A DNA stretch of 64,000 nucleotides, taken from positions 263 through 64,262 of the forward strand of contig JAJDAW010000013.1 in NCBI GenBank assembly GCA_029261635.1. The letters are read 5' to 3'. The translations under genes were made by a program, and so were the position numbers. Shown here in pieces: positions 5,016-54,939 of the stretch (the first letter of the stretch is position 1; each line of letters starts with the position of its first letter). This stretch comes from Nitrospinaceae bacterium (lineage in GTDB: Bacteria > Nitrospinota > Nitrospinia > Nitrospinales > VA-1). The notes under the pieces are model-generated. The model was not told the DNA's origin and ran no database searches. It worked only from the letters and a program-made list of their open reading frames with translations.

Positions 5016-5023
5016 ATTCCCGC

Positions 5024-5797: not shown

Positions 5798-5907
5798 AGG
5801 AAATACGAGGCGGAAAGCCTCTTTGACAAACTACATCCAAAAGCACAAGGGTCTTCGTTCGCCCAAAAATAAAATGACTCGCCCCTACTACGTGGGAAGC
5901 AACTCCC

Positions 5908-5985
5908 CTATAGTAAAATGCCTTAAAACCTATATTTGCTGCTCGGGTTTCGACCCATTGGCCCCACGCCTAGTGGTGGCTAGTG
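5908..5985 (-). repeat. REP/MITE-like element, long form (hairpin + CCAATGGGTC core + TTTTACTATAG tail)
   Basis: GACCCATTGGCCCCACGCCTAGTGG at 5952-5976 and CTATAGTAAAATGCC at 5908; aligns with copies at 8734, 12243, 34491. Confidence 0.6.
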
Positions 5986-6858
5986 GATGATTTTGTTTAA
6001 TGGATATTCGACGATATCTTCCGCGCCGGCTTTTTTAAGATCGGGAACGCAATCCCGCACCAGTTTTTCTTCGAGAATCACATTGATAGCTACCCATTTT
6101 GAATCGTTCAATTCAGAAACCGTTGGTTTTTTACCCGACGGAAAAATTTTAACGATTTCATCCAGCTTGTCTTTCGGCGCGTTGAGCATCAGCCCTACCT
6201 TGCCGTTGGCTGCCATGGCACCTTGCAACATCATTACCAGACGATCGACTTTATTGCGTTTCCAGGCATCTTGGTTTGCCGTCTTGTTCATAATAAAGCG
6301 AGTTGTAGATTCCATTAAGGTATCGACAATCCTTAGATTGTTTGCTTTGAGAGACGACCCGGTCTCTGTCACTTCAACAATCGCGTCGACCAACTTGGGA
6401 GCTTTGACTTCTGTAGCACCCCAGGAAAACTCAACGTTGGCAGTCACTCCATGGCCTTTCAGCCAATCTGTTGTCAGATTGATGACTTCAGTGGCAATCC
6501 GTTTTCCTTGCAGGTCTTGAACTGTTTTGATAGAGGAATCGTTAGGCACAGCCAGAACCCAGCGAACCGGTCGGGCTGAGACTTTGGAATAAACCAGCGG
6601 TGCTATTTCTTCCACATCAGCGCGGTTTTCCATAATCCAGTCTTTACCCGTCAAACCCGCATCGAGAACACCATCTGCTACATAACGTGCAATTTCCTGG
6701 GCGCGAATTAACATGCACTCAATTTCAACGTCATCGATACTGGGGAAATAAGAACGGCTTTTAATTCTGATGTTGTAACCTGCCCGGGCAAAAAGTTTTA
6801 CCGTTGCTTCTTCCAGACTGCCTTTGGGAATTCCTAGTTTCAATACTTTACCGCTCAT
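5980..6858 (-). CDS. hisG: ATP phosphoribosyltransferase (long form)
   Basis: [23 protein letters not shown] start, 292 aa with C-terminal regulatory domain. Confidence 0.95.
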
Positions 6859-6886
6859 GGATTGATCTCTTTCTTATATGGTTAAT

Positions 6887-7258
6887 TTATTTTTTATAAA
6901 CTTTTTCCGGGTCGAATACTTTTTCTTCTACTATTTTCACATCCCCGTCAACTTTTCTAAAAAAGCAACTGGTATAGCCCTTATGACAGGCGGCTTTACC
7001 TACCTGTTCTACTTTCAAGAGCACCGTGTCATCATCGCAATCGACAAACACTTCTTTCACAATTTGGACGTTGCCACTTTCTTCCCCCTTCATCCATTGT
7101 TTGTCCCGTGAGCGGCTGTAGAACCATGCTTTTCCGGTTTCCAGGGTCTTTTCCCAGGCAATGGTGTTCATATAGGCGAGCATTAACACTTTCCCAGTTT
7201 CCGCGTCTTGAATTATCGCCGGAACCAGACCACCCATTTTTTCAAAATCAAGTTTCAT
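6887..7258 (-). CDS. hisI: Phosphoribosyl-AMP cyclohydrolase
   Basis: [22 protein letters not shown]...[16 protein letters not shown]...[27 protein letters not shown]. Confidence 0.9.
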
Positions 7259-7529
7259 ACCATTGCCCTCTAGCTAAAATTACTCAAAAATTAATAGAAT
7301 TTGGCTACTTATCTTCAGTTGCCAGTCAAATGGATTGGTTTACTTCCCCAAGCTTTGAGTGAAGCTTGGAAATCTAAAATATAATTGATTTTCTGTCAAC
7401 CTTATAATAGCCTGTTTACAATCGAATTAGTTCTTTTTGTTGGTTTTTTTAATCATTTTTTAGCGCTAAACCTGTTAATTTCATATTTATTACAAGGTTA
7501 CCGCTATTCCAAAAATATAAGGGGTCTAG

Positions 7530-8150
7530 ATGCCTTCCATAACACATTTTGATATTTACAAACCTGCAGAGCCTTGTACTTTGACAGGCGATAAGTTGCA
7601 GGAGGCCATGAAAAAAGTTGTTGGAGAGACCTTGAGTCAGGATGGCAAAGAACTGAACCTGAAAGGGTATTGTGTCGGCCAAAATGGAATGACTATTATC
7701 ACTCGTGATGAGCGTGTAGCAAAAGTGCGCCGACTGAATCTTGGAGGAAACCGTATAGGGGATGTAGGAGTACAATTGCTCGCAGAGGCTGAATTATTTT
7801 CCAAGGTCAATTGGATAGAATTAGGCGGTAACGATATTGGCCCGGAAGGGATTCGTCATCTTATCCGATCTAAAGTTTTACAAAAGGTGAAGTCGCTCAA
7901 CCTGTACCGGAACTGTATTAAGGATGAAGGTGCAAAAATAATGGCAAGGGATAACGGATTAGCAAAATTAGAAGATCTGGATCTGGCGCAGAACGAAATC
8001 GGTGATGAAGGAATTATGGCATTGGCTCTTTCGACAAAGTTCCCCGAATTGGTAAGTATTGCCTTGGACAACAATTTTGCTTCTGCCGAAGGAAAAGAGG
8101 AAGCTAAGGTAGAACCCAATTTCAAAAAACTTCAATCCTTAAACTTGTAA
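7530..8150 (+). CDS. Leucine-rich repeat protein, ribonuclease-inhibitor (RI) type repeats
   Basis: Successive ~28-aa units LNLGGNRIGDVGVQLL, ELGGNDIGPEGIRHL, LNLYRNCIKDEGAKIM, LDLAQNEIGDEGIMAL. Confidence 0.7.
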   Translation: MPSITHFDIYKPAEPCTLTGDKLQEAMKKVVGETLSQDGKELNLKGYCVGQNGMTIITRDERVAKVRRLNLGGNRIGDVGVQLLAEAELFSKVNWIELGGNDIGPEGIRHLIRSKVLQKVKSLNLYRNCIKDEGAKIMARDNGLAKLEDLDLAQNEIGDEGIMALALSTKFPELVSIALDNNFASAEGKEEAKVEPNFKKLQSLNL

Positions 8151-38290: not shown

Positions 38291-40252
38291 CTAATTCAAT
38301 TCTTTAAATCCACAAGATAAAAGATATTCATAAATTGGATCGTAAAATTCAGGTTTCCTTGTATCGTCTTCCTTGTCACCTTCTGGAACAAAAATAACCA
38401 TACCTTGCCGAGCACGTGTCATTAATACTCTATACGAATTTAATAAATAAAATTGCCTTTCTGTTTGGGCATTATTTTGCCACTTAGTACCTTTAAAGGA
38501 ATAAAATTCCCAATTACCATCGTTTCTTCTTAAATTAGCATCCCAACAAAGACCAACCCAGTCAAGTTCAAGCCCTTGAATTTCAAATTCTGACGCAGCA
38601 TCTTCCAAATAGTAACTTGATCGAATATCTTGTTTATTTGAAAGAAACCAATGGGTCGGATCAATTTTAGATTTCATGTTCAAACCGTAAGGTTTTAGTC
38701 GAATCGCATTTGATGAAGAAACCAAGCCATATCTTTCGGACCCTCTAGAAACTTCTTTCAACCAATTCTTAACTTGTGTAAGGCTTCTTGATATATACAG
38801 TGGATAATTTTTTAACCCGCATAAAACCTCTTTTGCTTGTTGATTTTCCCCTTCTAATACCTTTCCAATATATTCTGAAAGACGTTCAGATCGAAAGGAT
38901 CTGATTGATGTCCCTAAATGAAGTTCAGAATATTTATTGATGAATGAAGGTCTGATTTTGTTAAATAACTCTGATGTGTTGCCATGTTCATATTCATAAA
39001 GTTTACTGGAAAAATAAATTGTCCAATCCTTTTTTGACTTTTCAACTGCCTTTACCCACTCAGCAACACCGGCTTCGCCAGAGTTAATTTCTTGGCCATT
39101 ACCAATTAAACATATAACAACGCACCAATCCTCATGTCGTGCCATCACGGATAGAAGAAATTCCGGTTCTGACTGTTCAAAATCACTTATACCCCGCTTT
39201 TGATTCATAAACCTACGTGTAGCACTTAGGTTCCAAGCCCTTTGTGCTTCGTCAAATACAACAACTTTTTCATGAGGTGGATTGAAATTACTTAAATATT
39301 CGTCTCTAAAGTGGTGAATATTTTGAACAAATGTTTTAGCTTTTTGCATAGCAGTTTTTTTAGAGACTTCATTTCTTTCCACTTCATCTCTAGCAAGGGC
39401 TTCCCTTAAAACATCGGCAAGGGGCCCATTTCCAGTTAGAAACACGCCTTCATCCTCAGAGTGACTTGCCCTTCTTGAAGAGGTGGCAATCTCTAATCCC
39501 GCCAAAGTTTTTCCAGAACCGGGAACACCTGTCACAAAAATAACCGATTTTTTTTTATTGGTTTTTGCCTCCTTAATTATTGAGAGGACTTTTGTGGCGG
39601 TTTCTTGTAAATTTTTTACACCAGCTTCTGATCTAGTTATTTCTTTTACTGAATGTCCGCTAAATAATGCCTTAGCAGCCTCTACAATCGTAGGTGTGGG
39701 CTTGTAACCGCTTGATGCCCAAATTTCGGATTTCCCATCAGGGCTGCCAAAGTTATTGGTAACTTCGATTAATATTTGCGTTAGTTTTTCAGGAGAAACT
39801 GCCGTAGGAAATGCGACTTTATCGTCAGCAAAATTACACGATTGAGATGGAAGATCAGTTTCTGTGGGAATCAAAATTGGGACAATGTATTTATTATGAC
39901 TACCAAGGTGAAAGTTTTTCAAGTCAAGTGAGTAGTCATGAGCCTGATCTAATCCGGAACTATCAGGTTGGTTTGCTCCAACTTTATACTCTAATAGGAA
40001 AATTATATTTTTTATCAACAGAACAATATCAGCACGCTTCCCCATTCTAGGAATGGAAAATTCAAAATATATTCTTCCTTCTTCTTTTATTTCTAATAGT
40101 GTCCGTTTGAGATGCTTAACTTGGAATTCCCATGCGCGCTTTTGATTTAAATCAAGAGCAAAGAAATGGGCTTTGGTTAGCTTTCCCATTATCTCTGAAT
40201 CGTTGAGCCTAAGAAATGTCTTAAAATCAAGATCGATGTATGAACGTTGCAT
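38291..40252 (-). CDS. DUF2075/Schlafen-type P-loop ATPase-helicase with N-terminal PD-(D/E)xK-like nuclease motif (Nhi-like candidate defence protein)
   Basis: GKRADIVLL...FLLEYKVG; Walker A VTGVPGSGKT; Walker B VVVFDEAQRAW; C-terminal YRVLMTRARQGMVIF. Confidence 0.7.
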   Translation of the reverse strand: MQRSYIDLDFKTFLRLNDSEIMGKLTKAHFFALDLNQKRAWEFQVKHLKRTLLEIKEEGRIYFEFSIPRMGKRADIVLLIKNIIFLLEYKVGANQPDSSGLDQAHDYSLDLKNFHLGSHNKYIVPILIPTETDLPSQSCNFADDKVAFPTAVSPEKLTQILIEVTNNFGSPDGKSEIWASSGYKPTPTIVEAAKALFSGHSVKEITRSEAGVKNLQETATKVLSIIKEAKTNKKKSVIFVTGVPGSGKTLAGLEIATSSRRASHSEDEGVFLTGNGPLADVLREALARDEVERNEVSKKTAMQKAKTFVQNIHHFRDEYLSNFNPPHEKVVVFDEAQRAWNLSATRRFMNQKRGISDFEQSEPEFLLSVMARHEDWCVVICLIGNGQEINSGEAGVAEWVKAVEKSKKDWTIYFSSKLYEYEHGNTSELFNKIRPSFINKYSELHLGTSIRSFRSERLSEYIGKVLEGENQQAKEVLCGLKNYPLYISRSLTQVKNWLKEVSRGSERYGLVSSSNAIRLKPYGLNMKSKIDPTHWFLSNKQDIRSSYYLEDAASEFEIQGLELDWVGLCWDANLRRNDGNWEFYSFKGTKWQNNAQTERQFYLLNSYRVLMTRARQGMVIFVPEGDKEDDTRKPEFYDPIYEYLLSCGFKELN

Positions 40253-40362
40253 GCAAGGTGCTACTTTCTATAGTTTATTTTTCATAATAAATGGTTGATA
40301 GCATATGATAGCGGATTGATATCTAAAGGGGTCATGAATGAAGGTGAAGGGGTCAAAAAAGG

Positions 40363-40385
40363 GGAAAAGAAAAGGGGTCAAATCT
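40363..40385 (-). repeat. Right 23-bp inverted repeat flanking the DUF2075-like gene
   Basis: GGAAAAGAAAAGGGGTCAAATCT; preceded by two further AAGGGGTCA copies at 40326 and 40347. Confidence 0.9.
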
Positions 40386-40420
40386 CCTCTTGGCTGCAAG
40401 TTTGAAAGAGGTACCCACGT

Positions 40421-41758
40421 TCAGGTATTGCTTATCGATTTCAATGCCTGCATCTCTTGTTGAGCAAACAGGTGGAAAGCTTTCTGGTTTTTTTCTTGCA
40501 GGTCTGGTCCGCCGGGTGACTGGAATGTCAGGGGGTTGATCGACTTTCCATTTTTTCTGAGATGAAAACAAAGGTGGGGTCCGGTTGCGGCCCCGGTGGC
40601 GCCTACATAGCCGATTACCTGGCCTTGCTGGACTTTCTTTCCCCGCGACATTTTCGCAGCATATCTCGACATGTGAGAATAAGAACTTACATATCCATTA
40701 CTATGTTTCAATTTAATATGTTTGCCTGAACGGGAACTGCGCGACACGTTAATCACCTCTCCATCACTGATGGCATAAATCGGTGTTCCTCGTGGTGCGG
40801 CATAATCGACAGCGCGATGAGCCAAGTGTTTTTTATAGATGGGATGAAACCGACTGTGGGTGAATCGAGATGTGATCCGTGTATATTTTAACGGACTCTT
40901 CAAAAATTGTTTCTTTAAGGGACGGCCATCAGAGCTGTAGTATCCACCATGCTCTCCTTCGGGCTTATAATAAACTGCGGACAAGCTTTTGCCCCGGTTT
41001 TGAAATGTAACGGCTCTTATTTTTCCAAAATCGACAAACTCTTGATCGAGAAACTTTTTCTCTACCAGAACTTTAAATGAGTCCCCCACTCGCAGGTCTT
41101 TAAAGAAATTGATCTGCCATGCAAAAATTTCTTCAAGGTCGATTGCTGTCTGATAGCTTCCCCCTGCTTGCAACACGGTCGTGATTAAGTTTTTTTGGAT
41201 GGTGCCTACCAGAGTTCCCATTCGGATTTCATATTCAGGAACTATAAAGCGAGAGACAAACTCAGCGTCTTTCCGTTCAATCAACAGCTCACGTTCCTTT
41301 TCTATTTGATAGCTAAAGGCAACCAACTGGTCATCAGAATTCAGTTTGATGGAATAGGGGTGCCCAGGGCGCAAGCGGCGAAGGTTATAGGTTGGCCGGG
41401 TTTGTTTTACCATCTCCAACACGGTCTTCAACGGTATTCCATGGTCGCCCATTAAATCTGACAAGCTTTGGTTTCTTGCAATTTTTCCTTCGATCAAACG
41501 GTAAACGGGTTCTACAATTTCAGGTTCTTTTAATTCGGGCTCTGGCACTTGTATTGGTTTTACTTCTAATGGACGAAATTCAATTTCATCCACTTGAGGG
41601 CTTTGAATGGTTTGGATGGGCTTGCCTTCGAAATAATGTGAAGCTCCAACCAAAAAAATGCTGATCAAGGCAACTCCAACAAACCAGACCTGCCGCCTCC
41701 ATTTGAAAATTTTTGGGTTGCTGGGTTTATTAGAAATATTTTGGTGAGTATCTGACAT
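40421..41758 (-). CDS. M23 family peptidase with N-terminal TM anchor (MepM/Csd3-like)
   Basis: HRAVDYAAPRGTPIYAISDGEV, GPHLCFHLRKNG. Confidence 0.85.
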   Translation of the reverse strand: MSDTHQNISNKPSNPKIFKWRRQVWFVGVALISIFLVGASHYFEGKPIQTIQSPQVDEIEFRPLEVKPIQVPEPELKEPEIVEPVYRLIEGKIARNQSLSDLMGDHGIPLKTVLEMVKQTRPTYNLRRLRPGHPYSIKLNSDDQLVAFSYQIEKERELLIERKDAEFVSRFIVPEYEIRMGTLVGTIQKNLITTVLQAGGSYQTAIDLEEIFAWQINFFKDLRVGDSFKVLVEKKFLDQEFVDFGKIRAVTFQNRGKSLSAVYYKPEGEHGGYYSSDGRPLKKQFLKSPLKYTRITSRFTHSRFHPIYKKHLAHRAVDYAAPRGTPIYAISDGEVINVSRSSRSGKHIKLKHSNGYVSSYSHMSRYAAKMSRGKKVQQGQVIGYVGATGAATGPHLCFHLRKNGKSINPLTFQSPGGPDLQEKNQKAFHLFAQQEMQALKSISNT

Positions 41759-42612: not shown

Positions 42613-44697
42613 ATGATAACCGAAGTTCAATCACCGGATTTTTATAAGTTGTTGGGTGTGGAACCCAATGCCAACCAAAAAGAGATCGACCGTGCCTATC
42701 AGAAGCTAATAGGTAAGTTTGATTCTTCGGAAGGTAAAAGGGCATCGCTTGATAAACCTACCTTGAAAGAGCAGATCGAAGCGGCACAGGAGGCTTATGA
42801 CACGCTCTCTAATAAGGAAAAGCGCGAAGCTTATGATGCTGTGGCTCAGGTGAAAAAGAAGCCAGAACCTTCTGCTCCTGTTAAACCTGGCCCTCTTCAA
42901 TTTATGGGTCGCAAAGGTCAATCAAAAAATGCGAAGCACCAAAATGTTTATCAGGATTTTTTTGGTTTTTCTGAAAAGCCGTTCGACCTTACCCCTGATC
43001 CGAAATATCTCTATCTGAGTCCGAAGCATAAAGAAGTGCTGGCGCATCTGGTTTATGGTTTGCAGGAGAATAATGGATTCTTAAAAATTGTCGGCGAAGT
43101 GGGAACTGGCAAGACGATGATCTGCCGTAGTTTTCTAAGGGAGCTGAGAACAGATTTTAATATCGCTTATATATTTAATCCGGCTATCAATGGACTGGAA
43201 TTATTACAGACCATCAACAGTGAATTGGGGTTGCCTAGTAAAAGTAAGAGCAAAAAGAAACTGATCGATCTGCTCAACGCTTTTTTGCTGGAAGAAAGAG
43301 CGAAAGGCCACAGAGTCGTCGTTATTATTGATGAAGCTCAGGATTTAGAACCCAAGGTAATGGAACAGTTGAGGTTGCTTTCGAATCTTGAAACGGATAC
43401 TGAAAAACTCATTCAGATTGTATTGATCGGTCAGCCGGAGTTGGAAAAAGTCCTCGCCAAAGACGGACTGCGTCAGTTGCGTCAACGCATCACCATTCAG
43501 TGGGAACTGTTACCGCTCAATCTTGAAGAGACCCGTGGTTACATTCAACACAGGTTGAATGTGGCATTAGGAAAAGGGAAGGTTCGCTTTTCTCGCCCAG
43601 CAGTTGAAACGGTTTTTCGTTATTCGCGCGGAATTCCGCGAATGATCAATGTCATCTGTGACCGGACTTTGTTGATCGCTTACACAGAAGGCACCAAAAA
43701 GATTATTCCGCAAATTGTTAAAATCGCTGTGAAAGATATTGGTAGCCTGGTGCCGCTTGAATCCTGGACCGACAAGTTTTGGAAGCTGGTGATTCCTTCG
43801 GCGATTGCGGCGGGGCTTGGTTTCTTCGCTCTAAACTTTTTCGCGTTACCCGAATTCGATAACAAACCTCAAGGCAAAGATATTGCCGCTTTAATTAAAG
43901 AAGACCCTATCGACTTATCGTCACCGGGTGAGCTGATCAATTATTCTGCTGCCTCTGCAACCGTTGCTCCAGCTCTTCCAATAAATATTCCTGAAGTGGT
44001 GCCACAGCCAGCTGTTGTTGAAGAAGTTGCACCCCAACCGATTCCAAGCAATGGAATGTTGAGCATATCGGATTCGGAGAAACTTGTGACGTATCTTTCC
44101 AGCCTGACACTAATGGAAAGTAAGCTGGAAGCCATTAAATGGATTTTCGAAGCCTGGGATATTGCTCCCGAAAACCTTCAAGACAAAGAAGACTTGGAAA
44201 TATTGATAGAGGATCATCAGTTACTTCAGTATGAAATGAATGGAACTATGAAGCGATTGCAGAGCCTCAACTATCCTGCTCTTTTAGAGATTGCGCTTCC
44301 CAATGCACAGGGAACCAAATATTTGGCCCTGTCTTCTATTAAAGGAGATAAAGGCGTGTTCGGGTCAGTGGATAAAATTGAAATGCCGCTTTCGATCATC
44401 AATTCGATTTGGACAAGGAAAGCGATTGTTTTATGGAAAGATTTTGAAAACCTGCCAGAATCATTTGATCTGGGATTCGAAGGTAAAGAAGCGGTTTGGC
44501 TGCAAAAAAATCTTCGCCTTCTCGGTTATTTTCAAGGGCGAGAGGCCCCTTTGTATGGCCCTAAAACGATTCGCGCTGTAAGAAGACTTCAGCGTAACAA
44601 CAATATTAAAGATGATGGCAAATTTCAAATAGATAGCAAGATGCTTGTATATAATCTTCTGCAAATTTATCAAACCCCGGAGCTAGTAACCCGGTAA
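42613..44697 (+). CDS. J-like domain (HPD replaced) + ExeA/GspA-like AAA+ ATPase + TM + C-terminal peptidoglycan-binding domain
   Basis: DFYKLLGVEPNANQKEIDRAYQKLIGKFDSSEG...AYDTLSNKEKREAYD; VGEVGTGKT and VVVIIDEAQ; TM at ~aa 390-415; LQKNLRLLGYFQG...GPKTIRAVRRLQ. Confidence 0.75.
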   Translation: MITEVQSPDFYKLLGVEPNANQKEIDRAYQKLIGKFDSSEGKRASLDKPTLKEQIEAAQEAYDTLSNKEKREAYDAVAQVKKKPEPSAPVKPGPLQFMGRKGQSKNAKHQNVYQDFFGFSEKPFDLTPDPKYLYLSPKHKEVLAHLVYGLQENNGFLKIVGEVGTGKTMICRSFLRELRTDFNIAYIFNPAINGLELLQTINSELGLPSKSKSKKKLIDLLNAFLLEERAKGHRVVVIIDEAQDLEPKVMEQLRLLSNLETDTEKLIQIVLIGQPELEKVLAKDGLRQLRQRITIQWELLPLNLEETRGYIQHRLNVALGKGKVRFSRPAVETVFRYSRGIPRMINVICDRTLLIAYTEGTKKIIPQIVKIAVKDIGSLVPLESWTDKFWKLVIPSAIAAGLGFFALNFFALPEFDNKPQGKDIAALIKEDPIDLSSPGELINYSAASATVAPALPINIPEVVPQPAVVEEVAPQPIPSNGMLSISDSEKLVTYLSSLTLMESKLEAIKWIFEAWDIAPENLQDKEDLEILIEDHQLLQYEMNGTMKRLQSLNYPALLEIALPNAQGTKYLALSSIKGDKGVFGSVDKIEMPLSIINSIWTRKAIVLWKDFENLPESFDLGFEGKEAVWLQKNLRLLGYFQGREAPLYGPKTIRAVRRLQRNNNIKDDGKFQIDSKMLVYNLLQIYQTPELVTR

Positions 44698-45506: not shown

Positions 45507-45875
45507 TCACTCGCTTCCTTCCAAATTTTTGTATTGAATAGTTTTTCCTGGATAGCCTTGTTCGATTAAAAGGTCGATCACATTTTTTGTAGACTTGATA
45601 TGCAATTGCGCCGAAGGCATGCCATCGTGGTCCGGGCCTTCTTCCTCTAGAGAAATAATGCCGGGGCCAAGGTAGTTGCAATAAAAAGCTCCGAGAGGAC
45701 GAAAATTTTTTAGAGGCTCATTTTCCGGGCTGGAGTTGACGACTATCATCTTTGTCATTTCGTCAGGACCGGCATAAACTTCGAATAATCCCCCCTTCTG
45801 AATCGTGTGGTTCTGGCAATATGCAATAATGCGTTTGACCTCTTCGGGGGGGAGTGCTTTATAAATGGTATGCAA
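45507..45875 (-). CDS. Hypothetical protein
   Basis: 122-aa ORF, no motif recognised. Confidence 0.45.
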   Translation of the reverse strand: MHTIYKALPPEEVKRIIAYCQNHTIQKGGLFEVYAGPDEMTKMIVVNSSPENEPLKNFRPLGAFYCNYLGPGIISLEEEGPDHDGMPSAQLHIKSTKNVIDLLIEQGYPGKTIQYKNLEGSE

Positions 45876-45982
45876 ATATTATCTCCTGTTCTTGACTTGT
45901 ATGTAAATTTTATCAGTTTTTTTTCAGGAGTGGTTTGTAAATAATATTTTTGTTTAAATTAAATATTAATTTTAGGGAAATC

Positions 45983-46573
45983 ATGGAAGACAAACTCAAC
46001 CAAATTTTAAAAGGCATTCAAAAACTGGAAAACCAATTAACTTTTGAGCTTCAAAAAGGGGAAGAGGAGTTTTTTTATAAGGTTCAAAAAAAGCGTGTCA
46101 GATTTGAGCGAGAGATAAAAGCCAAGCATCGTTTAATGATAAAGCGGGTTCGCGATTATATTAGAGACGCAGCTTTTTTAAATGTTTTAACAGCTCCAAT
46201 TATCTGGTCCATTCTTTTTCCTGCAGTTTTTATGGATATGGTGATGTCGTTTTATCAGGCAGTCTGTTTCCCAATTTATGGGATTCCAAAGGTAGATCGC
46301 AGTAAATATATTGTTATCGACCGGCACTATCTCAGCTATCTAAATGGTGTGGAAAAACTAAACTGCGCCTATTGTGGGTATGTAAACGGTTTAATTGGCT
46401 ATATTCAGGAAATAGCAGCGCGGACGGAGCAATATTGGTGCCCGATAAAACATGCGCGAAAAACCCGGTTTGTGCATGGCAGGTACTCCAATTTTCTCAG
46501 TTATGGTGATGCGGAAGGGTATCGAAAACATATTGAAACCATCCGCCGTAAATTTGATGACATAAAGCAGTAA
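45983..46573 (+). CDS. Hypothetical membrane-associated protein with CxxC...C motif
   Basis: Coiled-coil N-terminus, hydrophobic segment IIWSILFPAVFMDMVMSFY, CAYCGYVNG...EQYWCPIKHA. Confidence 0.5.
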   Translation: MEDKLNQILKGIQKLENQLTFELQKGEEEFFYKVQKKRVRFEREIKAKHRLMIKRVRDYIRDAAFLNVLTAPIIWSILFPAVFMDMVMSFYQAVCFPIYGIPKVDRSKYIVIDRHYLSYLNGVEKLNCAYCGYVNGLIGYIQEIAARTEQYWCPIKHARKTRFVHGRYSNFLSYGDAEGYRKHIETIRRKFDDIKQ

Positions 46574-46666
46574 ATTCTTCTGTGGCTTTATGGTTTAGTC
46601 TTTTTGGTTTAATATTTTTAGATAATGTTGACTTTTTTGGTTCATCTCTGATAAACCCTATCGGCT

Positions 46667-47542
46667 ATGTATTTTCAAGATATCATTTTAAATCTTCAGA
46701 ATTTTTGGGCATCACGTGAGTGCGCCATCCATCAACCTTATGATATAGAGGTGGGGGCTGGCACGTTTAATCCCTGCACTTTTTTCAGGGTGCTGGGTCC
46801 CGAACCTTATAATGCTGCGTATGTAGAGCCCTCTCGCCGCCCGACGGATGGCAGGTATGGTGAAAACCCGAACCGTCTGCAACATTACTATCAGTTTCAG
46901 GTGATTCTTAAACCGTCCCCACAAGATGTGCAGGATCAATATTTAAACAGCCTCACTGTTCTGGGTGTGGACCCTTTGAAGCACGACATCCGGTTTGTTG
47001 AGGATGATTGGGAGTCGCCTACCCTGGGAGCCTGGGGGCTGGGTTGGGAAGTTTGGCTGGATGGCATGGAAATTACCCAGTTCACTTATTTCCAACAAGT
47101 GGGTGGAATAGATTTAAAACCGATTACCGCAGAGCTGACTTATGGATTGGAACGCATCGCGATGTATTTGCAAAATGTGGAAAATGTCTATGATTTGAAA
47201 TGGAATAAAAATCTTTTATATGGCGATGTCCACCTCGAAACAGAAAAACAGTTTTCCCGCTATAATTTCGAAGCCTCCAATAAGGAACGATTGTTTCAGT
47301 GGTTTGATATGTATGAAGCAGAAGCAAAAGAGTTACTGGAAAAAGAACTGGTTCTTCCTGCTTATGACTACACATTGAAATGCTCACATGCGTTTAATTT
47401 GTTAGATGCGAGAGGGGCTATCAGCGTAACCGAGCGAACAGGCTTTATAGGGAGGGTTCGCAACCTTGCGCGTTTATGCGCTGAAGTTTATGTGCAGCAG
47501 AGAGAGGCTATGCAGTTTCCACTGTTAAAAAATAAATCTTAA
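46667..47542 (+). CDS. glyQ: Glycine--tRNA ligase alpha subunit
   Basis: [24 protein letters not shown]..., [23 protein letters not shown]. Confidence 0.97.
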
Positions 47543-49935
47543 TCAGGCGAAATTTCGTTATCCGCCATGGTTGAAGTTTCACCCCATTTTCTTATTTGTG
47601 TACGCACTGCCATTGAATCGGGATGCTTGATTTCTTCATAAATTTTTAAGACTTCATTTGCACGCTCGCTGGCTTCGAGAAGTTTTTCTTGAATTCCCAA
47701 TCCAAGACATATTTTCCAGAGTGCTTCCCCTTCCAACTGTCGATTGCCAATTTTTTTCGATAATTCCAGAGCATCTTCAAAGTAAATTGCTGCCTGGTCA
47801 TTTTCATTATTTTCCTGATGCGTGTTCCCTAGTTGTATCAATAGGCTACCTTCCCCCTGCACGTCCTTTTGTTTCCTTACCGAGAGCAAACCATTTTCGA
47901 GGTAGATAAGGGCTTTCTCCATATCTCCAGATTTAACGGCGAGTTCGCTTAATTTTTTGGTTATTTGAGTTTCTAAGGGATGCCCCCCTTTCGTTCGTTG
48001 TGCCAGGTCAAGACCATTTTCAAAATAGTCGAGAGCTTTTTCCATTTCTTCCAGTCCCAAACAGGTTTCCCCCAGCATATTCAACAAATCAACCTGTTTT
48101 AATTTATCATCTTTTTGTTTTGCCATTTCAAGAGCTTGGTCGCCAAAATCGACAGCTTTTTGAAAGTCTCCGATTTGGTTGTTTGCTTCCCCCAGTTTTT
48201 CGAGGATGTCCGTTTCCTCCGATTTTTCACCTGCCGCCTGGGTGAATTTCAGGTCTTGTTCCAGAAACTCTATGGCGCGTTTATAATTTTTTAGGGCCAT
48301 GCAGGCCACCCCCAAATGTCGGAGTGCTGTTTTCTCTCCCTGGGTGTCGCCAGTTTTTTTGCAAAGAGAGAGTGCGCGCTCCATGAACTCCAATGCTCTT
48401 TGTGGTTGATTCAACCTGTTGTATTCAGGCCCCAGATTCAAGAGATGCATACGTTCGGCTTCTTTATCGCCCAGTTGCTGAGCTGCAGACAAAGCGGCTT
48501 CAAACCAGCGGATGGTATCAGCAGGTTGCAAGCGTTTTACAATTAGTTCAGCGCCATTTTCTGTGTAGGCGCTGCATATTTTTGCCGCATCTGTATCCTT
48601 GGAACAATTTTTCTGAGCCCATTCTTGTCCGGCTTTAATATTATCCAGTTCTTGGTCGAAATACATCATGCCTTTGATTTGGGCTTTACCCCCTTTGACA
48701 CTTAACTGTTGTGCTGTTTCCAAGGCATTCATGAATTCGGTGGCCAAACGTCGCTCAGCCATTCCTTGCTCTCCACCTGATATAAGGGGTTTGACAAATT
48801 TCCTTACAAGATCATGCAGGGAAAAACGATCCGTGTTTTCATTAGTTTGAACGAGACCATATTGGACAAGACCAATCAGAGATAAATTATCTGTGTCTTC
48901 GCAAACAAATGCTTCTGCTTTTGCGCTGAAGGAGCCGGGAAAAACAGTCAGCTTTCTTAGTACTACAGCTGCCTTATCTGGCAAAAGAGTGTAGCTATAT
49001 TTTAACGCAGCTTCGATGCCCGTGGCCAGAGTTTCGTTGTCACCATGGCCAAGGCCTTTCTTAACATCGCGCAACTTATTGGCAAAGTATTCGGGGTCCA
49101 TAGTGGCGTTGATGGCAAACAATTTACCAATCAATTCCAGTGCAATTGGAACGTCTTTACAGATTTTTGAAATTTCTTTAATTGCATGGCTGAGTTTCGG
49201 GCAGAGCCGTGTCAGCATATTATGTGAATCGAGAAAATCCAAAGAATCCAGTGCAATGGAAACAAAACCCGGAATTTTGACAGGTTTAACGGAAGTGACG
49301 ATTAAAAGCCATGAAGGAGGTGGAATAAGGGGCTTTATCTGTTTTGGGCCAGCAGAATTATCGAGAATCAGTATGCCCTTTTGCTTTTTTAAAGTTGTTC
49401 GATATAGCTTTGCCAGAGCCTTGGTGTCTGTTGGTAAAGTCTGGTTTGGTTTGAAGCGGGTGATGATTCGGCCCATTATTTCTACAGGTGAAGGGGCTTT
49501 GGGGTCACTGCCCCGCATATCCATAAAAACCTGATCGCCAGAAAACTGCGAGGCGAACTTTTTAATCATCATTATAGCCAAAGTGGTTTTGCCTGTACCT
49601 GCATGACCACTGAAGCTGATCATCACCGGGGGTTTGCCCGTGCGCGATACCACATCCTTGAATATTTCTTTTCTTCCAATGAACAACTCAGGTTCAGGGG
49701 GAGGTCGGTAAAGTTTGACACTCCCTACGCCCATTTCAGGAGACATCTTGATTGCCTTTTCCACCAATGCCTGCGCTTTTTTTGCGTGATTGGGGTTACG
49801 CAACTTAGGTCCACTCGATTCTGAATCGGGTGATTCAGATGATTTTTTTTTGCCAGAAGAGCCCTTTTTCGACATCTTTGAAATCAGGCCTGCGACAATG
49901 GCTATGACTGCAATGACTATAATAATAGTGGTCAT
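47539..49935 (-). CDS. Membrane-anchored NB-ARC (STAND) NTPase with C-terminal TPR array
   Basis: N-terminal [19 protein letters not shown] + Lys-rich stretch; P-loop [11 protein letters not shown]; ILILDN; LLIVTS; [10 protein letters not shown] (GxP-like); at least 8 TPR-like repeats. Confidence 0.75.
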
Positions 49936-50147
49936 TTAAGTATCCGTATCATAGTTCAAACAAAGGAAATTCCAGACAGGGCAAAATATGGAGTAAGACA
50001 GAGAATATATCATATTATGATTCCCGCTATTTGTGTTTCGTATAAGAATTCTGAAGGTTGACTTTAAAAATTTTTGCTCGATAATACTCATTTTTGCCCT
50101 TATCTCATTTGTTTTCAGGAAATTCTGGTTTAAAGACACCTTAAATT

Positions 50148-52220
50148 ATGGCTGAGTTATTTTTAGAAATTGGCTCTGAAGAGCTTCCTTCCGGGTATGT
50201 TCAACCTGCCTTGGACTATATGCACAAAGAACTGTCTTCGTTTTTTGCCAAGAACCGAATTGAAGCAGAGGCCCCTAAAACCATGGGCACTCCAAGACGA
50301 CTGATTGTCTCGGTAAAAGGAGTGATGGCCATGCAGGAAGATTCTGTGGATGAGTTTCTCGGGCCAGGAGTTTCAGTGGCCTATGATGACCAAGGCCAAC
50401 CCACTAAAGCCGCAACAGGTTTTGCCCGTGGTAAGGGAATTGATGTTTCTGATCTGACTCGTAAACAAACACCTAAAGGAGAAGTGATTTGCGCCCGGGT
50501 CGAAAATAAAGGTCGTGTCACTTCATCTTTATTAAATGAATATCTGCCTCAATTAATTAGTCAAATTCCATTCCCCAAAAAAATGCGCTGGCAAAATAAA
50601 TCCCAGCCCTTTGCCCGACCCTTGCATTGGGTTACCGCTTTGTTTGAGGGGCAAGCCCTACAGTTTGAATTCGATGGTATTGCCAATGATGTGATTTCGC
50701 GAGGACATCGATTTCTGAATCCTGAAAGATTTCAGGTCAAGGACCTTGAATCCTATTTAACGGAATGTGAAAAGCATTTTTTAGTAGTAGATCCCGATAT
50801 CAGAAAAAGAACCATTTTGGAACAGGTTCAACAGTTAGCCGAAAAGGCCGGAGGTCATATTAAAGAAGACGAGGAATTGCTGAACCTGGTAAATTTTCTT
50901 GTTGAGTTTCCGGTAGCCATTAAAGGGGATTTTGATTCCGGTTTTTTAGAGTTGCCGCAAGAGCTACTGGTGATAACAATGAAATACCACCAGAAATATT
51001 TTCCCGTTTGGGATAAGGAAGAAAAGCTTCTCCCTTGTTTTATTACCGTCAGCAATATGCCTGCATCGGAAGGGAATGAAATACAAAAAGGCAACGAGCG
51101 TGTTTTGCGTGCACGACTAGAAGATGCTCGATTTTTTTACGATGAGGACCGAAAGAAAAAAATCGCAGATTTTGTTGAACCTTTAAAAGGGGTCGTGTTC
51201 CAGAAAAAATTAGGAACGGTTTATGAAAAAGTAAGTCGTGTTACCGATCTCGCGGGAATCCTTGCGAGTGAAGTATGTCCGCAAAAAGAAACACAAGCGA
51301 GAAGAGCCGCTGAATTATGCAAAGCCGATCTGGTCAGCCAGATGGTCTTCGAATTTCCCGAGCTGCAGGGAATCATGGGCGGCTATTATGCTTCCCACTC
51401 AGGAGAAGAAGCCGAAGTTGCCCAGGCGATTAAAGAACATTATCTCCCCACCTTCGCAGGGGATGTTTTGCCCTCTTGTGATTCAGGGGCCAGTGTTGCC
51501 ATAGCAGATAAACTCGATACTATTATCGGTTGTATAGGCGTAGGGCTGATTCCATCCGGCTCTGAAGATCCTTATGGATTGAGAAGGCATGCTCTGGGTA
51601 TTTTGCAAATCGTACTGGATAGAGGGTGGCAGCTTTCTTTTCTAAGCCTCGTGGAGAATGGCCTCAACCTAATTGCCGATAAAGCTAAGCTGGACAAAGG
51701 TGAAATTAAAAAGCATGTAGAAGACTTATTTTCTCAGAGATACAAAACTTTGTTGAATGGAGAAGGTTTTCCTTACGACGCTATTGATTGTGTCCTATCA
51801 GCGGGAATGGATTCTATTGTTGATGTGAAGGCAAAAGTGGCGGCTTTTTCTGATTTAAAAAAGCAGCCTTATTTTGAGCCTCTTGCCATTGCTTTTCGGC
51901 GGGTTGCCAGTATTTTAGATAAAAAAGTAGATGGAGAAATCGATCCTGGATTGTTGAATGAACCGGCAGAAAAACAACTGTATGCCGCTTTTTTAAAGGT
52001 GCGTGATCCGGTATTGAATCATATTAAGAATAAGGAGTTTTCCAGCGCATTGGAAAAAATGGGGGAGATAAAACCCTCTGTGGATGATTTTTTTGACAAT
52101 GTGATGGTGATGGTAGAAGACCCTGCCCTGCGCGTAAACCGCCTTTGCCTACTACGCGATATATCCGGCTTATTCTCGGATATTGCTGACTTTTCAAAAA
52201 TCGTTTTGAAAAAAGGTTAA
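50148..52220 (+). CDS. glyS: Glycine--tRNA ligase beta subunit
   Basis: MAELFLEIGSEELPSGYV..., full-length 690 aa. Confidence 0.97.
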   Translation: MAELFLEIGSEELPSGYVQPALDYMHKELSSFFAKNRIEAEAPKTMGTPRRLIVSVKGVMAMQEDSVDEFLGPGVSVAYDDQGQPTKAATGFARGKGIDVSDLTRKQTPKGEVICARVENKGRVTSSLLNEYLPQLISQIPFPKKMRWQNKSQPFARPLHWVTALFEGQALQFEFDGIANDVISRGHRFLNPERFQVKDLESYLTECEKHFLVVDPDIRKRTILEQVQQLAEKAGGHIKEDEELLNLVNFLVEFPVAIKGDFDSGFLELPQELLVITMKYHQKYFPVWDKEEKLLPCFITVSNMPASEGNEIQKGNERVLRARLEDARFFYDEDRKKKIADFVEPLKGVVFQKKLGTVYEKVSRVTDLAGILASEVCPQKETQARRAAELCKADLVSQMVFEFPELQGIMGGYYASHSGEEAEVAQAIKEHYLPTFAGDVLPSCDSGASVAIADKLDTIIGCIGVGLIPSGSEDPYGLRRHALGILQIVLDRGWQLSFLSLVENGLNLIADKAKLDKGEIKKHVEDLFSQRYKTLLNGEGFPYDAIDCVLSAGMDSIVDVKAKVAAFSDLKKQPYFEPLAIAFRRVASILDKKVDGEIDPGLLNEPAEKQLYAAFLKVRDPVLNHIKNKEFSSALEKMGEIKPSVDDFFDNVMVMVEDPALRVNRLCLLRDISGLFSDIADFSKIVLKKG

Positions 52221-52308
52221 AACATTACCGTTGTTTTGGACAATTTGGTAAAATTCCTCCCTCAAGTTTTTAACCTTATATTGTCAAACGTCTACCGCTT
52301 AATTTTAA

Positions 52309-54939
52309 ATGACTAAAAAATATATATATGCTTTTGCCGGTGAAAAAACCGATGGCAAAGCAGACATGAAAAACCTACTGGGAGGCAAAGGTGCCAATCT
52401 TGCTGAAATGGCATCATTAGGTATAAATGTCCCGCCCGGGTTTACTATTTCCACCGATGCCTGTGTTTATTATTTAAAAAATAAGAATAATCTTCCGCCA
52501 AAGCTTTGGAGTGAAGTCCTCGCTCAATTAGCAGGTCTCGAAAAAACGATTGAAAAAAAGTTTGGTGATTCTAACAACCCCCTTCTAGTTTCGGTTCGTT
52601 CAGGAGCACGTGTGTCGATGCCGGGGATGATGGATACGGTTCTGAACCTGGGCTTGAATGAAAGCAGCGTGCTCGGTCTTGCTAAAAGAACGCAGAATGA
52701 ATGGTTCGCCTTCGATACCTACCGCCGATTTATTTCAATGTTTGGCAATGTTGTATTGAATATTTCGGGTGAAAGTTTCGAATCTATTCTCGAAAAAGAA
52801 AAGTTTAAGAGAGGCATCAAATTCGACACAGATTTTTCTATTAAAGATTTAAAAGCCATTGTCAAAAAGTTTAAAGCTCTTGTGGTTCGCGAAACAAAGA
52901 AAAAATTTCCTGACGACCCCATGAAACAATTACGAATGGCAGTAGAAGCGGTGTTTAATTCCTGGAACACAGACCGAGCGGTTATATATAGGAAAATGAA
53001 TGGCTTTTCACATGATTGGGGAACGGCGGTAACAGTACAGTCAATGGTTTTTGGCAATATGGGTAAAACTTCCGCAACGGGGGTGGCGTTCACCCGCAAT
53101 CCCGCTACTGGGGAAAATAAATTTTTCGGCGAGTACATGATCAATGCGCAAGGCGAAGATGTGGTTGCGGGAATTCGCACCCCAAATTTTATTGACCAGC
53201 TTGAAATCGAAATGCCAGAAATTTATCAGGATCTTGTGAGTGTCTACCAAAAGCTGGAAAAACATTACAAGGATATGCAGGACATAGAGTTCACCATTGA
53301 AAACCAAAAGTTGTATTTGTTACAGACCCGATCTGGAAAACGGACTGCGGAATCGGCCATCAAGGTGGCGGTCGATATGGTGGATGAAGGTTTGATAGGC
53401 AAACGCGAAGCTTTAATGAGAGTTCCAGCAAATCAACTTGATCAAATCTTTCATCCCATGATTGACCCCAAGGCAAAATTAAAAGTCTTGGGCAAAGGAT
53501 TGGGAGCTTCACCTGGGGCGGCTTCAGGAAAAATTGTTTTTACTCCAGAAAGAGCGCAGGAACTGGCTAAAAATAATGAAGATGTGATCCTCGTCAGAAT
53601 GGAAACTTCTCCAGAAGATATTCTCGGTATGAGTGTCGCGCAAGGGATTATCACTGCGAAAGGCGGGATGACCTCCCACGCTGCGGTGGTTACCAGAGCA
53701 ATGGGAAAACCCTGTGTTTCTGGAGTGGAGGAGTTAATCGTAAATAGTAAAAGTAAACAATGCCAGTTGGGAGGAGTTAAATTGAAAGAGCTGAGCCCTC
53801 TCACTCTCGATGGCTCTTCCGGAATGGTGATAAATGGAATGGCTCCTTTGATTCAATCGCGTTTAACCCGCTCTTTTACGAGCATGGTGACTTGGGCAGA
53901 TGAAGTTCGGAAGTTGAAAATTAGGGCGAATGCAGATACCCCTCATGATGCAAAGATGGCAAGGAAATTCGGAGCAGAAGGAATAGGTCTTTGCCGAACC
54001 GAACATATGTTTTTCAATGAGGAGCGCATTTTTTTAGTTCGAAAAATGATCCTTGCTGATAACGATAAAGCTCGGAACGAAGCATTGAAAAAGCTACTCC
54101 CCATCCAACGTAAAGATTTTATCGGGATTTTTAAGGTTATGGAGGGGCTTCCGGTAACGATTCGATTACTCGACCCCCCTCTTCATGAGTTTTTGCCTCA
54201 TTCAACCCGCGAGATTAAAGGTCTAGCTCGAGAACTGAAAGTCTCAAGTACGACTTTACTAAAAAAAATCGAGAGTCTGAGTGAAGCGAATCCTATGTTA
54301 GGCCACCGTGGATGCAGGCTGGGAATCACCTATCCTGAAATTTATAAAATGCAAGTTCGTGCGATTTTAGAGGCAGGGTGCAGACTAACTAAAAAAGGAA
54401 TTAAAGTTAATCCCGAAATCATGGTTCCTCTGGTAGGGCATGTCAATGAATTTAAAATTGTCCGCGAATATATACTGGAGGTTGCGGCGGAAGTTTTAAA
54501 GAAAGAAGGTGTCGACCTGCAATATAAAATTGGTACGATGATTGAACTTCCCCGAGCTGCCATGACCGCAGATGAGATTGCCATGGAAGCAGATTTCTTT
54601 TCATTTGGCACGAACGACCTCACGCAAACGGCTTTTGGGTTAAGCCGCGATGATTCGGCGAGTTTTCTCAGGCAATATGTCGAGCAGGGATTGCTGAATC
54701 ACGACCCCTTTGTAACGCTCGACCAGGACGGTGTTGGGAAATTGATCCAGATAGCTGTTGAAAAGGGAAGAAAGGCTAAGCCTCGCATCCATATGGGAGT
54801 ATGCGGAGAACATGGGGGTGACCCTGCATCTATTGATTATTTCAACCGACTGGGATTGGACTATGTGAGTTGCTCTCCTTACCGAGTGCCAACGGCGATC
54901 CTAGCTGCAGCTCAGGCTGTTATAAAGGAAGATCATTGA
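52309..54939 (+). CDS. ppdK: Pyruvate, phosphate dikinase
   Basis: LLGGKGANLAEM, phospho-His region GGMTSHAAVVTRAMGKPCV, GLCRTEHMF, FFSFGTNDLTQ. Confidence 0.95.
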   Translation: MTKKYIYAFAGEKTDGKADMKNLLGGKGANLAEMASLGINVPPGFTISTDACVYYLKNKNNLPPKLWSEVLAQLAGLEKTIEKKFGDSNNPLLVSVRSGARVSMPGMMDTVLNLGLNESSVLGLAKRTQNEWFAFDTYRRFISMFGNVVLNISGESFESILEKEKFKRGIKFDTDFSIKDLKAIVKKFKALVVRETKKKFPDDPMKQLRMAVEAVFNSWNTDRAVIYRKMNGFSHDWGTAVTVQSMVFGNMGKTSATGVAFTRNPATGENKFFGEYMINAQGEDVVAGIRTPNFIDQLEIEMPEIYQDLVSVYQKLEKHYKDMQDIEFTIENQKLYLLQTRSGKRTAESAIKVAVDMVDEGLIGKREALMRVPANQLDQIFHPMIDPKAKLKVLGKGLGASPGAASGKIVFTPERAQELAKNNEDVILVRMETSPEDILGMSVAQGIITAKGGMTSHAAVVTRAMGKPCVSGVEELIVNSKSKQCQLGGVKLKELSPLTLDGSSGMVINGMAPLIQSRLTRSFTSMVTWADEVRKLKIRANADTPHDAKMARKFGAEGIGLCRTEHMFFNEERIFLVRKMILADNDKARNEALKKLLPIQRKDFIGIFKVMEGLPVTIRLLDPPLHEFLPHSTREIKGLARELKVSSTTLLKKIESLSEANPMLGHRGCRLGITYPEIYKMQVRAILEAGCRLTKKGIKVNPEIMVPLVGHVNEFKIVREYILEVAAEVLKKEGVDLQYKIGTMIELPRAAMTADEIAMEADFFSFGTNDLTQTAFGLSRDDSASFLRQYVEQGLLNHDPFVTLDQDGVGKLIQIAVEKGRKAKPRIHMGVCGEHGGDPASIDYFNRLGLDYVSCSPYRVPTAILAAAQAVIKEDH

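Follow-up and report, generated by a model that had tools for sequence, protein, structure and literature searches.

A stretch of 64,000 nucleotides from a Nitrospinaceae bacterium (assembly GCA_029261635.1, contig JAJDAW010000013.1, positions 263-64,262 of the forward strand; hereafter the window) carries glyQ and glyS, the genes for the two subunits of glycyl-tRNA synthetase (GlyRS), with a third gene lying between them on the opposite strand. This gene, here called the STAND gene, is predicted to code for a membrane-anchored protein of the STAND class, with an NB-ARC nucleotide-binding module and an array of tetratricopeptide repeats (TPR). Comparison with related loci indicates that it has occupied this site since an early stage of the phylum Nitrospinota, and that it descends from NLR/Avs-like proteins. 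The locus is made up of the following features.

46667..47542, plus strand: glyQ, alpha subunit of glycyl-tRNA synthetase, 291 amino acids (Pfam tRNA-synt_2e, 506.6 bits; NCBIfam glyQ, 500.8 bits)
47539..47542, no strand: TTAA in which the stop codons of the converging glyQ and STAND genes overlap (direct sequence reading)
47539..49935, minus strand: STAND gene, predicted 798-residue single-pass membrane-anchored NB-ARC/TPR protein (open reading frame; Pfam NB-ARC and TPR; 20-ortholog alignment; AlphaFold2 model)
49936..50147, no strand: spacer of 212 nt from which the STAND gene and glyS diverge (orthologous loci, 200-290 nt; without an Rfam family)
50148..52220, plus strand: glyS, beta subunit of glycyl-tRNA synthetase, 690 amino acids (Pfam tRNA_synt_2f, 675.5 bits; NCBIfam glyS, 822 bits)
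52309..54939, plus strand: ppdK, pyruvate phosphate dikinase, syntenic, 3' of glyS (PPDK_N/PEP-utilizers domains in orthologous loci; tblastn, 68-81% identity)

A preliminary description of this DNA had reported a 798-residue antisense gene splitting glyQ from glyS, stop codons overlapping in TTAA without a terminator, a spacer of 212 nt at 49936-50147 and a composition like that of the flanks, and had quoted four motif strings from the protein. Open reading frames (ORFs), coordinates and strands are all as described there, the spacer length agrees, the four strings are all found in the translation, and the GC content of the gene is the same as that of its flanks. Both synthetase genes score far above the cutoffs of their NCBIfam equivalogs, and the 2.6-kb interval between them holds the antisense 2.4-kb STAND gene, glyQ and glyS not being directly adjacent here. 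The stop codon of glyQ (47540-47542) and that of the STAND gene on the minus strand (47539-47541) do overlap, and no terminator-like site was found at this convergent junction. As a special feature, the overlap was rejected: other convergent ORF pairs within the window have gaps of 8, 10, 48 and 63 nt, and since short convergent gaps are so common it can be taken as ordinary genome compaction. Nor is it conserved even in close relatives, because in two 92%-identical ones (L012 2354-2444 and L013 7383-7461) the stop codons of the STAND gene and glyQ are separated by 79-91 nt, without the TTAA.

Homologs of the STAND protein, 93-33% identical and about 780-810 residues long, come from Nitrospina, Nitrospinaceae and Nitrospinota metagenome-assembled genomes, where they are publicly named only 'tetratricopeptide repeat protein' or 'hypothetical'. 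A peptide-pattern scan of one genome per species gave 25 loci, 21 of them in Nitrospinota, a lower bound drawn from the retrieved genomes only. In all 21 Nitrospinota species genomes with an ortholog, glyQ is convergent with the STAND gene and glyS-ppdK is divergent from it wherever the contig is long enough; the identical layout is also found on metagenome contigs, and neither glyQ nor glyS lies nearby at the four loci from other phyla. The shared order at loci with 80%, 48% and 36% identity is DnaJ-AAA22-PG_binding gene, small hypotheticals, glyQ, antisense STAND gene, glyS, ppdK, epimerase, thiamine pyrophosphate (TPP) enzyme. The geometry is similar throughout, with spacers to glyS of 200-290 nt and 3' ends of the STAND gene and glyQ -15 to +13 nt apart in most lineages. 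Across the 21 loci identity ranges from 92% to about 30% for the STAND protein and is 83-98% for GlyQ, and STAND identity drops in step with that of GlyS (pairs of 92/95, 83/84, 48/72, 36/64 and 30/60%), which matches the expectation for co-divergence. Furthermore, a neighbour-joining tree of 425 core columns places its 13 Nitrospinota proteins in a single clade (bootstrap 100%), nested among outside relatives. As far as sequence comparison can tell, the gene had a single origin at the glyQ-glyS site and descended vertically thereafter, and the earlier judgement that the insertion is old is borne out by the persistence of the layout down to about 30% identity within this one clade.

As controls we used 80 glyQ-anchored metagenome loci of other lineages (glyQ identity 65-81%), of which 75 were informative. 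At 64 of the 75, glyS lies directly 3' of glyQ on the same strand, in line with the view that the two genes are normally adjacent; at the other 11 they are not, so a split is not unique to this locus, although none of these 11 carries a STAND gene, and no STAND homolog was found at any of the 80 control loci. The locus resembles a canonical glyQS operon of the E. coli type in having the same two subunit genes in the same order and orientation, and differs from it in the antisense 2.4-kb gene and the separate glyS promoter that intervene. A survey of glyQ-glyS synteny had been suggested as a way of judging whether the gene has a housekeeping role: the family splits the pair in every Nitrospinota carrier found, but an essential housekeeping role is contradicted by the natural null alleles described below. 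The order glyQ-glyS-ppdK was seen at 16 of the 80 glyQ loci outside the Nitrospinota STAND clade (L038, L039, L041, L043 and 12 others of L036-L115), which makes the linkage of glyS and ppdK older than the phylum and not confined to it. The closest control, L036, has upstream flanks of the Nitrospinota type (DnaJ-AAA22 gene, 58%; hyp256; hyp122; glyQ, 81%) and epimerase and TPP_N genes downstream, with glyS about 184 nt after glyQ and neither STAND gene nor ppdK (4465-7630). It is thus an empty-site relative; it may represent the state before the insertion, or a clean loss of the STAND gene.

The STAND protein is divided as follows, from the N-terminus.

49879..49935, minus strand: N-terminal transmembrane (TM) helix, residues 1-19 (top hydropathy 17-mer at residues 1-6 in 20 of 20 orthologs)
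49684..49878, minus strand: Lys/Ser-rich linker, residues 20-84, predicted disordered and poorly conserved (identity 72/35/18% in three ortholog groups)
48751..49683, minus strand: NB-ARC nucleotide-binding/oligomerisation module, residues 85-395 (profile, ortholog alignment and alignment with AfsR, PDB 8k60)
48436..48750, minus strand: post-winged-helix helical domain, residues 396-500 (identity 89/65/41% in three ortholog groups; omega 0.039)
47581..48435, minus strand: TPR array, residues 501-785, about 14 helix pairs (TPR_12, 105.8 bits; TPR_MalT, 49.1 bits; identity 78/37/30%)

The protein is thus predicted with confidence to be a single-pass membrane-anchored NB-ARC/TPR STAND protein, as the preliminary description had proposed from one N-terminal TM helix followed by a Lys-rich stretch, an NB-ARC-type NTPase and a TPR array. 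The TM segment has a Kyte-Doolittle mean of 3.0 over 17 residues and is followed by a K/R-rich stretch; in the 20 aligned orthologs the corresponding mean is 2.3-3.3, and a net-basic stretch follows in every one. The apparent lack of the helix in L027 was an artefact of calling ATG starts only, and use of a GTG start restores it (MTTTILILIL...). Since no positive charge precedes the helix and Lys-rich sequence follows it, the positive-inside rule predicts an N-out/C-in signal anchor with a cytoplasmic NTPase. An AlphaFold2 model built on the 20-ortholog alignment has a mean predicted local distance difference test (pLDDT) score of 81.6 and is weak only at residues 1-50 and 64-75, where pLDDT falls below 50, and at the C-terminal tail. 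It comprises a P-loop alpha/beta domain, helical and winged-helix domains and about 14 helix pairs.

The NTPase falls in the STAND class by profile, the point on which the preliminary description had asked for a check. Pfam NB-ARC (PF00931) matches residues 99-192 with 29.5 bits against a gathering score of 23.5, covering only profile positions 15-107 of 248, with a weaker match to AAA_22, and AfsR (PDB 8k60), the sole solved-structure sequence match for the NB-ARC region, aligns with the full nucleotide-binding oligomerisation domain (NOD), residues 97-385, at E 1.7e-20. Most of the motifs are intact in the 20 orthologs: the hhGRxE motif upstream of the P-loop (FIGRKE; F85, G87 and R88 invariant), the P-loop itself (GHAGTGKT; G110, G113, G115 and K116 invariant), the GxP motif of helical domain ARC1 (DVPIALE; P263 nearly invariant) and the MHD-type winged-helix motif (LHD; H374 invariant). 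In Walker B (ILILD192), D192 is likewise invariant, but the residue after it is Asn (N193) instead of an acidic one, as in AfsR (LLDN), and the downstream Asp of the Walker B of outside relatives (DNAxD) is absent. A dead NTPase, which might be read from this 'DN', was rejected, since AfsR has the same LDN and the variant is not diagnostic. Only the loss of the sensor-I Arg (RNBS-B, TTR/TSR) is specific to the clade. The window protein has TSVK at this position, and the Arg is present in 15 of 16 outside relatives and in none of 13 Nitrospinota proteins, which have TS[VIT]K, TSIQ, ASSK, TSAS or VSNS while keeping the P-loop Lys, Walker B Asp and MHD His. This loss would probably alter the nucleotide cycle, perhaps by slowing hydrolysis.

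The post-winged-helix helical domain is the best-conserved part of the protein, and its motif is shared with outside relatives bearing TIR, DUF4062 or two TM helices (P0048-P0062). The TPR array is the least conserved folded region and resembles the TPRs of LGN/Pins, a solved-structure sequence match, and those of PH0952. Profile and structure searches disclosed no output domain besides the anchor, in agreement with the earlier reading; in particular, no Pfam match to a DNA-binding domain (SARP/BTAD, LuxR, helix-turn-helix (HTH)) or other output domain was found. The top NCBIfam models, HaaT, AfsR and FxSxx_TPR, are of NB-ARC/TPR proteins, and membership was rejected for each: HaaT (NF041717) scores 159 bits against a cutoff of 1125, the AfsR equivalog 127.6 against 1430, and FxSxx-COOH TPR (NF040586) 70.5 bits against 300. 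The AfsR/SARP regulators of Streptomyces (PDB 8k60, 8jke) have in common with the window protein an NB-ARC module with TPRs and the LDN variant of Walker B; they are soluble transcription activators with an N-terminal SARP/BTAD DNA-binding domain, whereas the window protein is predicted to be membrane-anchored. The best full-length PDB match of the model is PH0952 (6mfv; Foldseek E 3.8e-15, 693 aligned columns), an archaeal MalT-like STAND protein in which a NOD is likewise followed by a TPR sensor arm, but which shares 15% sequence identity, gives TM-scores of 0.41/0.49, is soluble without a TM anchor and falls in another clade of STAND proteins. Avs3 is a distant match, at rank 38 among the Foldseek PDB matches.

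Closer kinship is found with proteins of outside lineages that are 28-35% identical over nearly their full length and have NB-ARC core and post-winged-helix helical domain in common with the window protein. The N-terminus of these relatives varies: a TIR domain in P0049 and P0058, which match Thoeris ThsB models; DUF4062 in P0052, P0054, P0055 and P0060, P0055 matching the PADLOC candidate PDC-S60; two TM helices in P0050, P0051, P0053, P0059, P0061 and P0062; and an HTH-like segment in P0048. None of the outside relatives examined adjoins glyQ or glyS. P0051, with two TM helices, and P0055, with DUF4062, are sisters with 90% bootstrap, which demonstrates swapping of N-terminal modules outside the Nitrospinota clade. 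One relative (L007 2377-6405) adjoins a 1342-residue TIR-CHAT-AAA16-TPR gene. Module swapping and a neighbour of this kind are signatures of conflict-system families. DUF4062 is a TIR-like NADase effector, also in a DUF4062-STAND-TPR Avs2 protein (two 2026 preprints; bioRxiv 10.64898/2026.09.04.749371). Because the place of the single TM helix is taken in the relatives by TIR, DUF4062 (NADase), two TM helices or HTH, the comparison shows an ancestry of the NLR/Avs-like type, with the TM helix apparently sitting in the effector position. The TIR- and DUF4062(NIR)-NB-ARC-TPR proteins of NLR/Avs-like type (P0049, P0052, P0055; PsAvs2) are therefore alike in NB-ARC core, post-winged-helix helical domain, TPRs and tripartite layout of N-terminal module, NOD and repeats. 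They differ in having a NADase-type effector, two TM helices or HTH, in keeping the TSR, and in lying in unrelated, sometimes conflict-type contexts.

This ancestry raises the question of whether the STAND gene is an active anti-phage receptor of the NLR/Avs-like type, chromosomally fixed in the phylum, with the TM helix as its effector: the TPRs would recognise a conserved phage protein, the NB-ARC modules would oligomerise, and the clustered TM helices would breach or depolarise the membrane in an abortive infection. We regard this as a real but less probable possibility. Its closest relatives bear TIR (ThsB), DUF4062 (PDC-S60) or two TM helices at the same position and swap modules between sisters, DUF4062-STAND-TPR proteins are experimentally antiviral (bioRxiv 10.64898/2026.09.04.749371), the TIR-CHAT-AAA16-TPR gene beside one relative points the same way, TM modules are listed among bacterial NLR domains in the literature, and the TPR array is the fastest-evolving folded part. 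However, a fixed locus with vertical descent down to about 30% identity in 21 of 21 recovered species genomes is atypical of defence genes, and the low TPR omega of about 0.05-0.12, the presence of only one TM helix, set on a linker that is long and floppy, the clade-wide loss of the sensor-I Arg and the genomic context also count against an active receptor.

In that context, PADLOC gave no significant match among neighbours within 5 kb of the STAND gene, and hence no defence island. The STAND protein itself had generic TPR matches only and matched no PADLOC STAND model; in a control, the TIR/DUF4062 relatives matched only through their effector and TPR parts, the library being without a model for the NB-ARC core, and the lack of a STAND match is consequently uninformative rather than exclusionary. 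No relatives were found in IMG/VR or GenBank phages, and plasmids held only distant SARP-type regulators (<=29% identity), so that carriage by mobile elements was rejected. Instead of the patchy, horizontally spread distribution of defence genes, there is one clade at one locus in 21 of 21 recovered Nitrospinota species genomes. The layout of N-terminal effector, STAND module and C-terminal repeats fits only if the single TM helix is counted as effector, there being no enzymatic one. Context or effector criteria have led to 198 of 589 prokaryotic STAND clades being scored defence-associated, with defence and non-defence clades interspersed, which implies functional switches (PMC13581612); by the same criteria the Nitrospinota clade would be scored non-defence. 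The Avs/NLR-like layout seen in the preliminary description thus corresponds to a real kinship with the TIR/DUF4062 relatives, but given the fixed locus, vertical descent, absence of a defence island and absence of mobile-element relatives, the gene is not a typical accessory defence gene of the Avs type.

Two other genes of the neighbourhood deserve mention. The nearest defence candidate lies 7.3 kb from the STAND gene (window 38291-41758, minus strand): a 653-residue protein with a full-length match to PADLOC PDC-S41 (908 bits) and a Schlafen group-3 helicase domain, adjoining an M23/Csd3-like peptidase and absent from relatives. Together the two genes make up 5.5 kb between the FG-GAP and DnaJ-AAA22 genes, where L005 and L001 have only about 0.3-0.6 kb, and this region is, to judge from these comparisons, an accessory insertion with a candidate defence gene, unlike the fixed STAND gene. 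The DnaJ-AAA22 gene (window 42613-44697, plus strand) codes for a 694-residue protein whose N-terminal J-domain (DnaJ) is joined to an AAA_22 ATPase and, at the C-terminus, a peptidoglycan-binding domain, GspA/ExeA-like plus the J-domain; it is conserved and syntenic across Nitrospinota loci and is followed by a conserved 256-residue protein without a Pfam match.

Selection on the STAND gene was estimated as omega, the ratio of nonsynonymous (dN) to synonymous (dS) substitution. Against L011 and L013, where dS is 0.4-0.5 and unsaturated, omega is 0.09-0.11 for the STAND gene, 0.055 for glyS and 0.03 for glyQ; by domain, the winged-helix and helical parts have values of 0.04-0.05 and the TPRs about 0.12 (range about 0.05-0.12). 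The values for L013 glyS and L016 STAND were disregarded as ORF-boundary artefacts. These estimates show purifying selection at omega of about 0.1, as read from the closest comparisons.

Close relatives, with 84-92% nucleotide identity, nevertheless include null alleles. Three assemblies (L116 5562-6829, L117 1-1245 and L118 2695-3724) have the same deletion junction, with loss of codons ~86-459, that is, of the whole NB-ARC module, and each has additional, differing TPR deletions and frame changes; an 87-residue remnant ORF of this deletion was found on 8 contigs. In L119 (4268-6899) a 22-bp tandem duplication causes a frameshift at about codon 160, seen on five contigs, one of them at 92x coverage. 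L120 and L024 have a single frame change each, which could be assembly error. Because deletion and frameshift alleles occur in wild populations, the STAND gene is not essential: it is dispensable in nature and selected where intact. On the longest contig, L116, glyQ, glyS and ppdK are intact, as are glyQ in L117 and glyS in L118, and the integrity of the GlyRS genes is therefore independent of the STAND gene.

Such alleles, together with the possible frameshifts in L024 and L120, are what might be expected of a functionless, slowly decaying relic of an old insertion. We consider this highly improbable, since a frame of about 780-835 residues is intact in nearly all lineages despite identities near 30%, catalytic and structural residues are invariant, and omega is about 0.1 overall and 0.04-0.05 in the winged-helix and helical domains. 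Recurrent natural null alleles also suggest a costly, conditionally useful gene, which would suit an anti-phage role.

The spacer between the STAND gene and glyS contains the following elements.

50058..50085, plus strand: predicted sigma70-type promoter of glyS, -35 TTGACT, N16, -10 GATAAT, 62 nt upstream of the ATG (10 of 12 positions match)
50081..50108, minus strand: low-confidence candidate promoter of the STAND gene, ATGAGA-N16-TATTAT (9 of 12 positions match)
49985..50014, no strand: second conserved block, AATATGGAGTAAGACAGAGAATATATCATA; AACATTGCATAA... in the 48% group (spacer alignment)

TTGACT-N16-GATAAT is the best promoter match in the region. Both hexamers are identical at 15 of 15 loci of the 47-92% groups, as is their placement, with the -10 ending 51-65 nt before the ATG, and the -35 TTGACT is kept in the 36% group as well. 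The conservation of this site across 15 lineages agrees with the earlier placement of a glyS promoter inside the spacer, and glyS probably has its own conserved promoter of the sigma70 type. The candidate STAND promoter shares the -10 block of glyS on the opposite strand, where it reads TATTAT, and has a weak -35; in 13 of 15 lineages a similar site precedes the STAND ATG by 138-158 nt, a conservation that could simply reflect that of the glyS -10 block. The second block reads AACATTGCATAA...GAATATATCATA in relatives, with no promoter assignment, Rfam match or conserved RNA structure. A T-box or other riboswitch or leader was rejected, Rfam giving no match at E<=1 over 45800-52400, and RNAalifold predicts no pairs in the putative 145-nt leader of the STAND gene.

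The arrangement of these promoters could mean that the STAND gene is tied to GlyRS, its transcription tuning glyS and glyQ through the shared promoter region and the 3' overlap, or its protein regulating the enzyme. The lengths of the spacer and the tight abutment on the 3' end of glyQ are conserved across lineages, and if the -10 block is read on both strands the two promoters would compete. Against this, the match on the STAND strand is weak, no T-box, other Rfam element or conserved leader structure is present, no domain for binding DNA or RNA is found in the protein, convergent genes of this genome are commonly separated by short gaps, linkage may be mere inertia in a neighbourhood that is syntenic as a whole, and lineages with a deleted or frameshifted STAND gene retain intact glyQ, glyS and ppdK. 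A link of this kind therefore seems improbable to us.

With its purifying selection, fixed locus, lack of defence neighbours and clade-wide loss of the sensor-I Arg, the gene behaves as a settled part of the chromosome and not as a mobile defence gene. With about as much confidence as doubt, we propose that it codes for a switch of immune ancestry, fixed by vertical descent, tethered to the membrane and made to oligomerise by a ligand. One NLR/Avs-like copy would have entered antisense between glyQ and glyS in the Nitrospinota ancestor and would have been inherited vertically at the same spot thereafter, glyS being run from its own conserved sigma70 promoter. The N-terminal TM helix and the flexible linker of about 65 residues would tether the NB-ARC switch to the cytoplasmic face of the inner membrane, and the C-terminal TPR superhelix would serve as ligand-binding arm. 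Binding of a cytoplasmic protein or peptide in the TPR groove would lift autoinhibition; nucleotide exchange would lead to NB-ARC oligomerisation at the membrane and to clustering of the TM helices, and the signal would be delivered at or through the membrane, an output suggested by the TM helices being the sole module in output position. Topology, ligand gating, oligomerisation, membrane output and biological role are all put forward here as predictions from sequence and model.

As to the role of this switch, the arguments for exaptation are that the gene is fixed throughout the phylum at a non-defence locus, that omega is low and that the NTPase is altered; those for immunity are ancestry and recurrent loss. 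We lean towards an exapted physiological or stress-switch role over an active anti-phage one, as an even call rather than a settled one. Several points weigh against our proposal. Immune ancestry, the TM helix in effector position and recurrent loss in the wild fit an active immune receptor about equally well, and through some 65 residues of flexible linker, oligomerisation and TM packing would be no more than loosely coupled. Synteny extends over the whole region, and position alone is no proof of a gene-specific constraint. The survey is confined to retrieved genomes, and no cultured strain is named among the sequence-cluster members listed for the ortholog. The tree is not a maximum likelihood one, and dS is saturated in all but the closest comparisons (proportion of synonymous differences, pS, >0.6).

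In plants, the coiled-coil (CC) NLR ZAR1 offers a functional analogy for a TM-only output: NB-ARC oligomerisation gathers its N-terminal helices at the membrane, each helix belonging to a folded CC domain and inserting only after activation, and the sensor is a leucine-rich repeat domain. The window protein differs in its predicted constitutive anchor helix on a long disordered linker. A germline-fixed immune receptor like the plant CC-NLR resistosome, in which ligand-triggered NB-ARC oligomerisation would bundle pre-inserted TM helices into an ion-conducting or membrane-disrupting assembly, is in our opinion unlikely. If true, it would represent an unusually stable, vertically inherited prokaryotic NLR with a minimal, TM-helix-only effector, which the whole phylum would have retained at one housekeeping locus over hundreds of millions of years.

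Taken singly, TPR-sensor proteins of the STAND/NLR-like kind, bacterial NLRs with TM modules and separated glyQ and glyS genes are all known already. What is new is their combination, a TM-helix-only member of the TIR/DUF4062 NLR family held at one housekeeping locus phylum-wide, with a clade-specific change of the NTPase and natural knockouts. The locus also exemplifies how an essential two-subunit synthetase operon can come apart and be given an internal promoter that is both new and conserved. Bacterial NLR-like STAND proteins have mostly been studied as mobile, patchy anti-phage genes, and the STAND gene of Nitrospinota, a phylum of globally important marine nitrite oxidisers, behaves in the opposite way. 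Intact and null alleles coexist in the ocean and relatives bearing effectors are available, and consequently the domestication of an NLR is open to test in this family.

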